A stretch of DNA of 64,000 bases from Escherichia phage 310Ecol104PP: the sequence record OR062946.1. One strand, written 5' to 3'. The position numbers and the translations under genes are program-made. This document shows, piece by piece, positions 20,755 through 57,190 of the stretch (position 1 is the stretch's first letter; each line of letters starts with the position of its first letter). The notes beneath the pieces were generated by a model that had not been told where the DNA came from, did not search any database, and saw only the letters and a list, made by a program, of their open reading frames with translations.

Positions 20755-20786
20755 TGCCAAAAAGCCCCAACCTTTTGGTTAGGGCT
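20755..20786 (-). terminator. rho-independent terminator (minus strand), copy 2 of a duplicated hairpin
   Basis: ccaaaaagccccaaccttttggttagggct; near-identical to the hairpin at 21314-21344. Confidence 0.5.
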
Positions 20787-20793
20787 AAGAATG

Positions 20794-21267
20794 TTATTTG
20801 ATTTGTTTAGCAGACCAAATGCGGTCTTTAATAATCTTTTGGATGTCTTCAACATACTCTAGGTCATGAGCATGTGGATTATCTTTGAAACTATAGGCAC
20901 GGGCTAACTTTTGGCCTTCGGTTTTGATTACTAAAAGCTCTTTAAGGATAGCTTCATATTTAGCGATAATTCCTTTAACAATATTTTTTTCTTGTGCAGC
21001 TTTATGATCTGCTTTAGGAGCAGGTTTACCCGAAGCCTTTGCAAAAGCAGCGCCAGTAGCAACTAAACTTTTCCAGGCCATACTAACTGCATTTCCCGTA
21101 AATCCTTCTGCTTTCATGTCGCGAGCAAACTGGAATCGTGATTCGTCAGAAGCATCTTTATAGGAATATTTACCCGCTGCAATGGCTGCTTTTGCGACAG
21201 CTTGAATTTCGGTGCTAGATGCTTCATTTAACACCGCTTCATTTAAAAATTGAGCATATGATTTCAT
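20794..21267 (-). CDS. internal-protein-like gene with CTS-like N-terminus (157 aa)
   Basis: N-terminus MKSYAQFLNEA resembles the CTS; Ala/Lys-rich; ATG at 21265-21267. Confidence 0.55.
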   Translation of the reverse strand: MKSYAQFLNEAVLNEASSTEIQAVAKAAIAAGKYSYKDASDESRFQFARDMKAEGFTGNAVSMAWKSLVATGAAFAKASGKPAPKADHKAAQEKNIVKGIIAKYEAILKELLVIKTEGQKLARAYSFKDNPHAHDLEYVEDIQKIIKDRIWSAKQIK

Positions 21268-21306
21268 CTTATTTCCTGTTTTAATTCGTGATTTAATATA
21301 CTACTA

Positions 21307-21314
21307 TATTTATA
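21307..21314 (-). promoter_or_regulatory. T4 late promoter (TATAAATA on minus strand) for the CTS-like gene
   Basis: Plus-strand tatttata about 40 nt upstream of the ATG. Confidence 0.5.
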
Positions 21315-21317
21315 CCA

Positions 21318-21344
21318 AAAAGCCCCAACCTTTCGGTCGGGGCT
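21318..21344 (-). terminator. rho-independent terminator (minus strand), copy 1 of a duplicated hairpin
   Basis: ccaaaaagccccaacctttcggtcggggct; minus-strand hairpin followed by TTTTT. Confidence 0.5.
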
Positions 21345-21394
21345 AAGCCTTGCGGCAACCTTGTCGGGGTTCCACCTGCTAAGGCAAGTGTTTG

Positions 21395-21556
21395 TACGAA
21401 ACGCCGGGATTCGAACCCGGTTATTAAGTAGTTGACGCTACTTAATATTTTTAAAAGGCCATATCTCGACCATATCCGAACGTTCCGTCAAAAACGCTAC
21501 TCGGCTTACGGCAAAGATATTTCCTCGAATCGATAATTCGGTGCGCCGTTTCTGCT
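21395..21556 (-). ncRNA. candidate tRNA-like stable RNA (possibly analogous to T4 rnaC/rnaD)
   Basis: Canonical T-arm CCGGGTTCGAATCCCGG and acceptor-like pairing, but no standard cloverleaf or anticodon arm; lies just 3' of tRNA-Arg. Confidence 0.3.
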
Positions 21557-21655
21557 GTGATGTAAGAGGGCATCAACAAATCATAAAGATTTATTAACAC
21601 GATTCCTTACCCAGGGAACATCAGTCCGACGACTTACCGGTAGCGACCCGGTTTC

Positions 21656-22006
21656 TTAATATTCTTTTAAAGCATCAATCTGTTCACGGCGTAAACGCCA
21701 TAAATCAATTGCTTCATACGCAGATTCAGCATTTCGAATTAGCCGACATTTATATAAAGACTTATGATTTTGATATTGTGTAGATAACGGAATTTTATCT
21801 AAAAGGTCTTTACGTTCAAAATATTCGTAACCATCTAAACCAAATGAACGATTTTTAAGAAATTGCCAATGTCCAAATTCGTTTTCAACATAAACATAAT
21901 CTGCATGCTGATAAAGTAAATTAATTACACGTTCAGAAATAACAGTATCATTATGATTAAAATAGAATGTTAAATCATGAACTACTAAATAAACATTACC
22001 TTTCAT
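21656..22006 (-). CDS. hypothetical protein (about 116 aa) inside the tRNA region
   Basis: ATG at 22004-22006 (MKGNVYLVV) preceded by GAGGAAAA; the longer track ORF overlaps tRNA-Arg. Confidence 0.45.
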   Translation of the reverse strand: MKGNVYLVVHDLTFYFNHNDTVISERVINLLYQHADYVYVENEFGHWQFLKNRSFGLDGYEYFERKDLLDKIPLSTQYQNHKSLYKCRLIRNAESAYEAIDLWRLRREQIDALKEY

Positions 22007-22024: not shown

Positions 22025-22100
<76 letters not shown>

Positions 22101-22104
22101 GTAT

Positions 22105-22179
22105 TTGGCGGACGTGATAGGATTCGAACCTATAACCAATCGCTTAACAGGCGATCGCTCTGCCATTGAGCTACACATC
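22105..22179 (-). tRNA. tRNA-Asn (anticodon GTT)
   Basis: Cloverleaf GGATGTG-TA-GCTCAATGGCAGAGC; anticodon loop CTGTTAA; T-loop TTCGAAT; CCA encoded. Confidence 0.8.
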
Positions 22180-22183
22180 CAAA

Positions 22184-22270
22184 TTGGTGGGGAGTGATGG
22201 AGTCGAACCACCCGAGTCGCAATGACAATGGATTTACAGTCCACACCGCTACCTCTACGGGATAACTCCC
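22184..22270 (-). tRNA. tRNA-Tyr (anticodon GTA), long variable arm
   Basis: Acceptor GGGGAGT/ACTCCCC; anticodon loop CTGTAAA; T-arm GGTGG-TTCGACT-CCATC; D-stem imperfect; CCA encoded. Confidence 0.7.
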
Positions 22271-22279
22271 CAAATTAAT

Positions 22280-22354
22280 TTGGTGGCCCTGGGTGGAATT
22301 GAACCACCATCTGGCGATTATGAGTCGCTTGCTTGAACCTTCCAGCTACAGGGC
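22280..22354 (-). tRNA. tRNA with CAT anticodon (Ile2-type or elongator Met)
   Basis: Acceptor GGCCCTG/CAGGGCC; anticodon loop CTCATAA; at the position of T4 tRNA-Ile. Confidence 0.7.
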
Positions 22355-22355
22355 C

Positions 22356-22431
22356 TTGGTGCTGATTGACGGAATCGAACCGCCGACCTTCTCATTACAA
22401 GTGAGTTGCTCTACCTACTGAGCTAAATCAG
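22356..22431 (-). tRNA. tRNA-Thr (anticodon TGT)
   Basis: Acceptor GCTGATT/AATCAGC; D-arm AGCTCAGTAGGTAGAGC; anticodon loop CTTGTAA; CCA encoded. Confidence 0.8.
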
Positions 22432-22436
22432 CAAAA

Positions 22437-22526
22437 CTGGCGGAGGCGATAGGATTTGAACCTATGAGTCGCCGGAGCGACTGCCGGTTTTCAAGACCGG
22501 TGCATTAAACCACTCTGCCACGCCTC
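22437..22526 (-). tRNA. tRNA-Ser (anticodon TGA), long variable arm
   Basis: Acceptor GGAGGCG/CGCCTCC; anticodon stem CCGGT/ACCGG with loop CTTGAAA; CCA encoded. Confidence 0.8.
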
Positions 22527-22528
22527 CA

Positions 22529-22602
22529 GTCTCCATACAAGGATTTGAACCTTGGACCTCCTGATCCCAAATCAGGCGCTCTACCAAACTGAGCTACACG
22601 GA
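22529..22602 (-). tRNA. tRNA-Pro (anticodon TGG)
   Basis: Acceptor CTCCGTG/TATGGAG; anticodon loop TTTGGGA; T-loop TTCAAAT; CCA not encoded. Confidence 0.75.
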
Positions 22603-22612
22603 GTAAATTAAA

Positions 22613-22687
<75 letters not shown>

Positions 22688-22691
22688 AAAT

Positions 22692-22778
22692 TTGGTGCGA
22701 GAAGTGGGACTCGAACCCACAAGGAAATCATTCCGCAGCATTTTAAGTGCTGTGCCTTTACCAATTTGACCATTCTCG
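22692..22778 (-). tRNA. tRNA-Leu (anticodon TAA), long variable arm
   Basis: Acceptor GCGAGAA; anticodon stem CAGCA/TGCTG with loop CTTAAAA; T-loop TTCGAGT; CCA encoded. Confidence 0.8.
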
Positions 22779-22779
22779 C

Positions 22780-22852
22780 GCTGGGAATAAAGGACTCGAA
22801 CCTTTGCATCCTGGAATCAAAATCCAGTGCCTTACCAACTTGGCTAATTCCC
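22780..22852 (-). tRNA. tRNA-Gln (anticodon TTG)
   Basis: Acceptor TGGGAAT/ATTCCCA; anticodon stem CTGGA/TCCAG with loop TTTTGAT; CCA not encoded. Confidence 0.75.
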
Positions 22853-22950
22853 AATTATTAACAAAGGCTCTCTAACAAGAACCCTTGATGATAGAGGGTA
22901 TTAATCAGTGCGGTATGAGTTAATAATAACAAATAATTCTTAAAGCATAT

Positions 22951-56997: not shown

Positions 56998-57190
56998 AGC
57001 CAGTTACCAGATTTGTCTTTGGTATGGGTAGAATATTCACCATTCCACCAGAAGTCAGTATGGTTTCATATTTCTTAACTAACGCATTCACTGCATTACC
57101 GTTAGGATTGGAACCATATTTTTCTACCAGGGCTTTAATGTCTTTATCAAGAGCGGAAAGAGTAGTACGAATAAAGTTTAACTTGTTCAT
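56996..57190 (-). CDS. small early-strand protein in the 23-24 intergenic region (64 aa)
   Basis: ATG at 57188-57190 with SD GAGGAG 7 nt upstream and an early promoter module; Lys-rich helical. Confidence 0.55.
   Translation of the reverse strand: MNKLNFIRTTLSALDKDIKALVEKYGSNPNGNAVNALVKKYETILTSGGMVNILPIPKTNLVTG

Follow-up and report, generated by a model that had tools for sequence, protein, structure and literature searches.

Identification of the locus

The window, i.e. the whole stretch of 64,000 nucleotides analysed here (Escherichia phage 310Ecol104PP, sequence record OR062946.1), carries on its minus strand a cluster of tRNA genes followed by two small RNA genes and a terminator:

22853-22025, minus strand: ten tRNA genes (Gln, Leu, Gly, Pro, Ser, Thr, Met(CAU), Tyr, Asn, Arg) according to ARAGORN and Rfam
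21540..21659, minus strand: ortholog of rnaD (species 2 RNA), directly upstream of rnaC; ends transferred from the T4 annotation
21395..21533, minus strand: ortholog of rnaC (species 1 RNA), 139 nt; mature ends taken over from the T4 annotation; covariance model R1 scores 161.9 bits over 21390-21534
21316..21344, minus strand: intrinsic terminator of the tRNA/rnaD/rnaC unit according to a terminator scan; 10-bp stem with 7 G-C pairs, then a U tract

According to a pairwise alignment the minus strand from 21533 to 21395 matches rnaC of phage T4 (NC_000866, 70908..71046) without gaps and over its full length, 135 of the 139 positions being identical and four substituted. The T4 feature is labelled 'rnaC; small, stable RNA; species 1 RNA'. 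In the T4 reference the homologous DNA is annotated as two misc_RNA features, rnaD (71053..71171) and rnaC, which follow straight after tRNA-Arg. The order of tRNA cluster, rnaD, rnaC and terminator is the same in the window, as is the strand relative to the tRNA cluster, so that rnaC lies at the distal end of the tRNA cluster, 3' of rnaD and 5' of the operon terminator. The covariance model R1 scored T4 rnaC (161.1 bits) much like the sequence of the window. The T4-annotated rnaC begins 1 nt before the acceptor stem and finishes with ...GUA, not with CCA.

The initial annotation, which was made from the sequence of the window alone, had suggested that the locus encodes a stable RNA other than a tRNA, comparable to T4 species 1 or species 2 RNA, and had named an alignment to T4 rnaC and rnaD as a check. 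This alignment assigned 21533..21395 to rnaC and about 21659..21540 to rnaD, near base for base, and together with the synteny it decides for species 1; the species 1 reading is correct because of the nearly complete agreement with T4 rnaC. The interval originally proposed, 21395-21556, holds for the part occupied by rnaC, whereas its upper end (21534-21556) consists of the spacer and the 3' end of rnaD. BLAST searches detected close homologs in 761-806 phage records (761 by megablast, nearly all from Tequatrovirus), a few of which are labelled rnaC. The rnaC gene of the window is an already known RNA that has been rediscovered.

Species 1 RNA of T4 was reportedly sequenced in the 1970s, and tRNA-type base modifications in its T loop are said to be described in the RNA sequencing literature of that decade. 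RNAC has been detected as a stable transcript in T4 infection by Northern blot (PMC9697503), and the T4 tRNA transcript ends after the species I gene (PMC2330249). The function of species 1 and species 2 RNAs is still called unknown, which for rnaC makes it a question about 50 years old (PMC3014915; PMC9697503; PMC12685909). A literature search, whose reach stopped short of the 1975 sequence paper and the processing papers of the 1980s (RNase III, p2Sp1), retrieved neither a function nor a covariation-based structure for rnaC.

ARAGORN predicted ten tRNAs at 22025-22853 and neither a tRNA nor a tmRNA at rnaC, where it also reported no tag reading frame. The Rfam search likewise found no curated family at its gathering score, the tRNA family included, in agreement with the original call of a non-tRNA species. 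The sole permissive match was tRNA-Sec at 21396-21488 with 17.6 bits and an E value of 0.93, compared to a gathering score of 47. The families of tmRNA and of the bacterial Y RNA YrlA gave no match at E values up to 10 within 21200-21750, and the locus is assigned to neither. Folding of the minus strand, which had also been suggested as a check, indicated far more structure than expected by chance: the minimum free energy (MFE) of 21390-21560 is -57.3 kcal/mol (z = -4.78), and none of 200 shuffled sequences folded equally well.

Secondary structure of rnaC

The covariation set comprised 25 homologs from at least eight phage genera. Alignment A3 was built with MAFFT from 23 distinct sequences and alignment A5 with a covariance model from 25 sequences. 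The comparison established a predicted secondary structure of rnaC in which an acceptor stem, a 68-nt rod, a 9-bp hairpin and a T arm are joined in a cloverleaf-like four-way junction:

21526..21532, minus strand: acceptor 5' strand CGAUUCG at the annotated mature 5' end, pairing with 21403-21397 over 7 bp
21457..21524, minus strand: rod, a 68-nt irregular hairpin in the position of the D arm, made of five helical segments with a bulge of 3-4 nt and a 6-nt loop at its apex, predicted from fold and covariation
21486..21491, minus strand: apical loop of the rod, UUGACG (loop partner 1), complementary to 21437-21432
21447..21456, minus strand: A/U-rich single-stranded linker UUUUAAAAAU from the rod to hairpin 3, with an AAAA(U) core conserved in alignments A3 and A5
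21423..21446, minus strand: hairpin 3 with 9 bp in the position of the anticodon arm or variable arm; 8 of 9 pairs compensatory, 92% of the cells paired
21432..21437, minus strand: loop of hairpin 3, CGUCAA (loop partner 2), the full complement of UUGACG
21404..21420, minus strand: T arm with a 5-bp stem and the canonical T loop UUCGAAU; 100% paired, two pairs compensatory
21395..21403, minus strand: acceptor 3' strand CGUUUCG (21403-21397), discriminator-like U (21396) and A (21395, annotated 3' end), from T4 annotation and alignment

In alignment A3 the proposed pairs were formed in 91.8% of the cells, compared to 31-45% when the partner columns were slid; changes on both sides were seen in 20 of 32 pairs, and none of 500 shuffles reached an equal value. 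Taking A3 and A5 together, the values range from 89 to 92% against 31-47% for slid columns, again with no equal among 500 shuffles. Furthermore, the MFE fold of mature rnaC alone contains the same four-way junction. The topology resembles a cloverleaf: besides the acceptor and the T arm, whose stem abuts the acceptor as in tRNA, one arm takes the D position and another the anticodon or variable position. The fold contains neither a D loop nor an anticodon loop.

The T arm recognised in the initial annotation (CCGGGTTCGAATCCCGG at 21420..21404, minus strand) was recovered. Its motif GGTTCGAATCC occurs ten times in the window when one mismatch at most is allowed, namely eight times in tRNA genes, once at rnaC and once as a stray one-mismatch copy at 57105, compared to 0.7 occurrences in shuffled sequences. 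The 8-bp hairpin described there (UUAAGUAG/CUACUUAA at 21445..21424) corresponds to hairpin 3 and extends to 9-10 bp with the 6-nt loop CGUCAA. The stem of hairpin 3 is wholly different in one homolog (L015), which has the loop unchanged. The statement that there is no standard cloverleaf holds insofar as ARAGORN and Rfam call no tRNA; however, it overlooked the cloverleaf topology of the junction and the 68-nt rod at 21524..21457 in the position of the D arm. Structural conservation among T-even genomes, on which the initial annotation had made its proposal depend, was observed, the fold covarying over the 25 homologs.

Within the rod, 14 of the 17 middle pairs are changed on both sides with 88% of the cells paired, and five of the six pairs of the apical helix are compensatory. 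Although the rod occurs in two unrelated sequence types, independent folds of single sequences gave one irregular structure of 68-70 nt for all lineages.

Pairing between the loops of the rod and hairpin 3

The two 6-nt loops were found in four matched versions: UUGACG/CGUCAA in most lineages, UUGAUG/CAUCAA in Yersinia phage TG1, UUGGCG/CGCCAA in Marfavirus and UUAGCG/CGCUAA in phage MHG19. Pairing is complete in all 138 cells of this helix (23 sequences), with double changes at three of the six positions and not a single uncompensated change. Ascertainment does not explain the matching of the loops, since the variants were obtained by BLAST without patterns fixing the loops. These replacements point to a loop-loop (kissing) helix of 6 bp that joins the rod to hairpin 3 and that could also be formed between molecules, giving rise to dimers, instead of within one molecule.

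If the pairing is intramolecular, the lengths of the helices would suit a closed arrangement. The lower rod would lead outward from the junction over about 21-24 stacked layers, the 3-4 nt bulge would allow a turn, and the way back to the junction would be made up of the apical helix and the loop-loop helix with 6 bp each and of hairpin 3 with 9-10 bp. The three-dimensional arrangement suggested by the loop-loop pairing would consist of two helical stacks lying side by side, with no anticodon loop. The covariation-supported fold and the loop-loop pairing add to the descriptions in the sources consulted.

Distribution of rnaC homologs

Distant BLAST searches detected rnaC without rnaD in Moonvirus, Karamvirus, Tegunavirus, Gelderlandvirus, Kanagawavirus, Marfavirus and unclassified relatives. 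In most homologs outside Tequatrovirus, including those of Moonvirus, Karamvirus and Gelderlandvirus, rnaC starts 5-7 nt past the CCA end of a tRNA-Trp or tRNA-Met, and a tRNA-Gly follows about 6 nt after its end. True homologs scored 107-162 bits with model R1, while ordinary tRNAs reached at most 28 bits. The model identified no homolog among unrelated viral contigs, nor among the hits from 185,579 bacterial and archaeal genomes, and pattern scans of IMG/VR, metagenomes and bacterial genomes gave true homologs only from contigs of T4-like phages. The candidate L024, the candidates L025-L046 retrieved with a loose pattern, and the hits L063 and L064 in bacterial metagenome-assembled genomes (at most 13 bits) were rejected as chance matches.

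Two Dhakavirus phages, EcWhh-1 (L061) and ESCO10 (L062), keep rnaD, the trailer and the terminator and precisely lack rnaC when compared with phage LHE83 (L052) and with 21395-21539 of the window. At their junction ...GCGCACCGAA is directly followed by CACTTGCC...; the same junction can be written as CCGAA followed by CACTTGCC. Thus, rnaC behaves like a separate module of about 141 nt.

The GenBank records of T4-like phages are mostly blank at rnaC or carry a 'hypothetical protein' or a spurious tRNA (tRNA-Met, tRNA-Lys, tRNA-Phe). One record places a 'head vertex protein' over rnaD, and rnaC and rnaD are named only in T4 and some records of the RB series. rnaC has no Rfam family, and a covariance model of it could correct hundreds of annotations.

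A recurring motif, ...TTTGTAC(T)NTNT(A/G)GACCCGGA..., was observed upstream of tRNA genes or rnaC in Marfavirus (L047-L049), phage NM4.3 and phage MHG19 (L055, L057). This intergenic motif may represent a promoter or a processing signal.

The acceptor stem and its alternatives

The 3' strand CGUUUCG(U) at 21403-21396 has three competing partners, namely GAAACG at 21552-21547, ACGGAACG at 21488-21481 and CGAUUCG at 21532-21526. The stem CGAUUCG/CGUUUCG is found in all 25 sequences. Its pair 3-70 is G-C in 19 sequences and A-U in the six of T4 type. A tandem U.U is present in 23 of 25 sequences and is replaced by U-A and C-G in TG1 and by C-G and U.G in MHG19. Judging from this comparison the predicted true acceptor stem of rnaC is the one formed by 21532-21526 with 21403-21397. 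Taken alone it is weak (-3.9 kcal/mol) because of the two U.U mismatches.

The acceptor-like helix of the initial annotation, with strands about 150 nt apart, is formed by another pair of strands:

21547..21552, minus strand: GAAACG in the 3' part of rnaD, alternative partner of 21403-21398 in the MFE fold of the precursor

If this architecture were the functional one, the locus would encode a tRNA-like RNA of about 158 nt with a GAAACG/CGUUUC acceptor; in a weaker form of the proposal, the helix would exist only in the precursor, linking rnaD to rnaC and ordering their processing. The pairing of 21552..21547 with 21403..21398 is indeed chosen in the MFE fold once the upstream sequence is included, and its duplex energy of -7.7 kcal/mol surpasses that of the internal acceptor stem. 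Furthermore, TG1 carries GGUUCG at the aligned upstream position, which pairs with its altered 3' strand CGGACU by three double changes, so that an alternative pairing confined to the precursor is possible. However, this covariation comes from one lineage and the probability of its arising by chance was estimated at a few percent. The helix is not a conserved acceptor: its 5' strand lies inside rnaD according to the T4 annotation, where it is predicted to be partly paired in the 3' stem of rnaD itself, and GAAACG is unchanged in the Dhakavirus phages lacking rnaC. At least five genera have a tRNA at this position and lack the helix, whereas the internal acceptor is present in all 25 sequences. 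As acceptor strand of the mature RNA, GAAACG was rejected, given that the 3' end of a tRNA takes its place in Moonvirus, Karamvirus and Gelderlandvirus and that CGAUUCG covaries instead. Taken together, a functional role of GAAACG/CGUUUC in either form seems quite improbable. The third partner would turn rnaC into a tRNA that is degenerate or unusual, of class II or selenocysteine type for example, and still charged or decoded, with an 8-bp acceptor formed by ACGGAACG (21488-21481) and CGUUUCGU (21403-21396). Such a tRNA would agree with the weak tRNA-Sec match and the 8-bp pairing in the sequence of the window, with the class II tRNA-Ser genes being the best non-homolog hits of R1 (24-27 bits) and with the U-CCA end encoded in Marfavirus. 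Yet the tRNA-Sec score stays far below the gathering score, ARAGORN calls no tRNA, three pairs of the stem are broken in 7-15 of 23 sequences without real covariation, and the stem competes with two covarying helices of 100% pairing, namely the apical helix of the rod and the loop-loop helix. Considering also the lack of a 7-nt anticodon loop and a tail of ACA or UCA, not CCA, in most lineages, we regard an unusual tRNA as very improbable.

The 3' tail reads U-ACA in the window, U-UCA in TG1 and U-CCA in Marfavirus, C75 and A76 being conserved and position 74 variable. In the Marfavirus Klebsiella phages EI, MY02 and Clarke_MM3 (L047-L049) rnaC encodes the discriminator U and the full CCA after the acceptor stem, with UUCGAGU or UUCGAGC as altered T loop. 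The Marfavirus homologs are best suited to a test of CCA-dependent activities.

Processing and possible function

The acceptor/T-arm minihelix is the element that is recognised in tRNAs by RNase P, 3'-trimming exonucleases and T-loop modification enzymes. We consider it highly probable that the locus represents the rnaC of a Tequatrovirus, i.e. the last RNA of the tRNA operon, which would be released via its acceptor/T-arm mimic and would adopt a non-decoding fold with loop-loop pairing. The best-supported mechanism would be an excision by tRNA-processing enzymes that yields a rigid non-decoding tRNA mimic. rnaC is presumably transcribed as the final RNA of the tRNA operon. Structure and genomic context suggest that a stable RNA of about 139 nt would be released by virtue of its two ends, which pair into an acceptor stem of tRNA type with a canonical T arm stacked on it. 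RNase P and 3' trimming would act on this minihelix, and in the other genera the 3' end of rnaC would become free once the following tRNA is cut at its 5' end. In the precursor of T4 type the 3' acceptor strand may pair instead with GAAACG in the tail of rnaD. The compact closed fold would explain the stability of the RNA.

rnaC presumably cannot decode, since it has no anticodon loop; a role in translation seems unlikely. A function in trans, in which rnaC would mimic a tRNA and, through its acceptor/T-arm half, occupy or recruit a factor of host or phage that binds tRNA, either as decoy or as scaffold, is offered as a guess that may well be wrong. A wider proposal is more doubtful still: rnaC might represent an RNA architecture absent from the sources consulted, a tRNA-like four-way junction locked by a 6-bp loop-loop helix in at least eight T4-like genera, acting as a mimic that titrates or recruits a tRNA-binding host factor (e.g. 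a defence nuclease directed at tRNAs or an enzyme that processes or modifies them), with a maturation gated by the rnaD tail in T4-type phages. T4 remains viable in laboratory hosts when its tRNA region is deleted, which counts against the main explanation, as does the loss of rnaC in some Dhakavirus phages.

This loss is equally compatible with a purely cis-acting rnaC, which would shield the tRNA transcript from 3' exonucleases or space the processing sites, the stable RNA being a by-product. The position of rnaC as the last structured element before the terminator in T4-type phages fits such a role, and the fact that the literature consulted reports no rnaC phenotype (PMC3014915) also counts in its favour. 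However, in other genera rnaC sits between two tRNAs, where a protection of the transcript end is unnecessary, and the rod length, both loops, the tandem U.U and the A-rich linker are kept across genera while the stems turn over. The latter pattern argues for selection on the folded rnaC molecule itself, and an exclusively cis-acting role is considered unlikely. The possibility that the locus encodes a small protein is practically negligible. An ORF for 49 aa is present at 21451-21600 of the window and 'hypothetical protein' annotations lie under the BLAST matches in many GenBank records; yet this ORF spans the boundary of rnaD and rnaC, other genera have a tRNA in place of its upstream half, the substitutions in this region track base-pair compensation and not codon structure, and T4 and RB phages annotate RNA genes at this locus. 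The predicted 49-aa protein is an annotation artefact like the other 'hypothetical protein' calls over rnaC. The comparative model of rnaC offers testable features, namely the acceptor with the tandem U.U, the rod, the loop-loop pairing and the placement between tRNA-Trp and tRNA-Gly outside Tequatrovirus.

Comparison with other RNAs

rnaC shares with tRNA (RF00005), especially with class II tRNAs and their long variable arm, the 7-bp acceptor joined to a 5-bp T stem, the loop UUCGAAU and the four helices meeting at one junction; it is also embedded among tRNA genes with tRNA-like spacers. In contrast to tRNA, a 68-nt rod and loop-loop pairing replace the D arm and anticodon loop, the acceptor carries a tandem U.U, most lineages do not encode CCA and the scores remain below the threshold. 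In tmRNA's tRNA-like domain and in YrlA, an acceptor/T-arm mimic on a large non-tRNA body gives access to tRNA enzymes. rnaC is alike in principle, whereas its body differs in consisting of two hairpins closed by their loops.

The kissing complexes of HIV TAR-TAR* and ColE1 RNA I/RNA II have fully paired loops of 6-7 nt, and the 6-nt loops of rnaC are likewise complementary over their full length. However, those complexes are formed by separate RNAs, while rnaC has both loops in one molecule beside a tRNA-like junction. The 3' tRNA-like structures of plant viruses (TYMV, BMV) are further viral mimics of the acceptor/T half of tRNA that rely on tertiary pairing (PMC13191261). They are aminoacylated genomic 3' ends with a pseudoknot acceptor arm, whereas rnaC is free-standing, has an ordinary acceptor helix of 5' and 3' strands and would have its tertiary pairing in the distal half.

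rnaD, trailer and flanking genes

Compared with T4, the window has the same rnaD upstream and the same conserved trailer and terminator downstream of rnaC, and the substitutions in the stem of hairpin 3 amount to A-U/G.U changes; nothing functional differs. The window differs from T4 in an ORF for 116 aa between tRNA-Arg and rnaD and an extra ORF past the terminator. About 340 nt of non-coding sequence lie between the 116-aa ORF and the end of the operon, closing in the terminator, whose hairpin lies at 21344-21321.

A consensus fold of nine rnaD variants contains an invariant T-arm-like 5' hairpin (ACCGG-GUCGCUA-CCGGU), an invariant stem of GUCGUCG with the 3' end CGGCG(C)AC and a hypervariable central hairpin between them with some compensatory changes. 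The 3' end of T4 rnaD, ...GCGCACCA, resembles the end of a tRNA. The trailer (21345-21394, minus strand), which is retained even in the absence of rnaC, contains a 7-bp hairpin (CACUUGC-CUUA-GCAGGUG). Its first CCCCGAC copy could replace the second in pairing with GGUUGGGG of the terminator, which would be an attenuator-type arrangement.

Searches of both flanking ORFs against Pfam and PHROGs yielded only families of unknown function. The 116-aa ORF (21656-22006, minus strand) belongs to phrog_3355, has no Pfam hit and separates tRNA-Arg from rnaD, which are adjacent in T4; its stop codon overlaps the first bases of rnaD. The extra ORF for 157 aa (20758-21267, minus strand; phrog_2280) follows the operon terminator and is itself followed by a near-duplicate terminator hairpin, AGCCCTAACCAAAAGGTTGGGGCT, at about 20786-20763. 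As T4 lacks this ORF and has a single terminator, the arrangement suggests that a cassette was inserted and the terminator duplicated.

The tRNA set differs from that of T4 in the presence of Tyr, Asn and a different tRNA-Arg(UCU) and in the absence of the segB homing endonuclease. At 22281-22355 a tRNA called Met(CAT) occupies the place of the annotated tRNA-Ile of T4, and tRNA-Tyr scores barely above its Rfam threshold (30.2 versus 29 bits).
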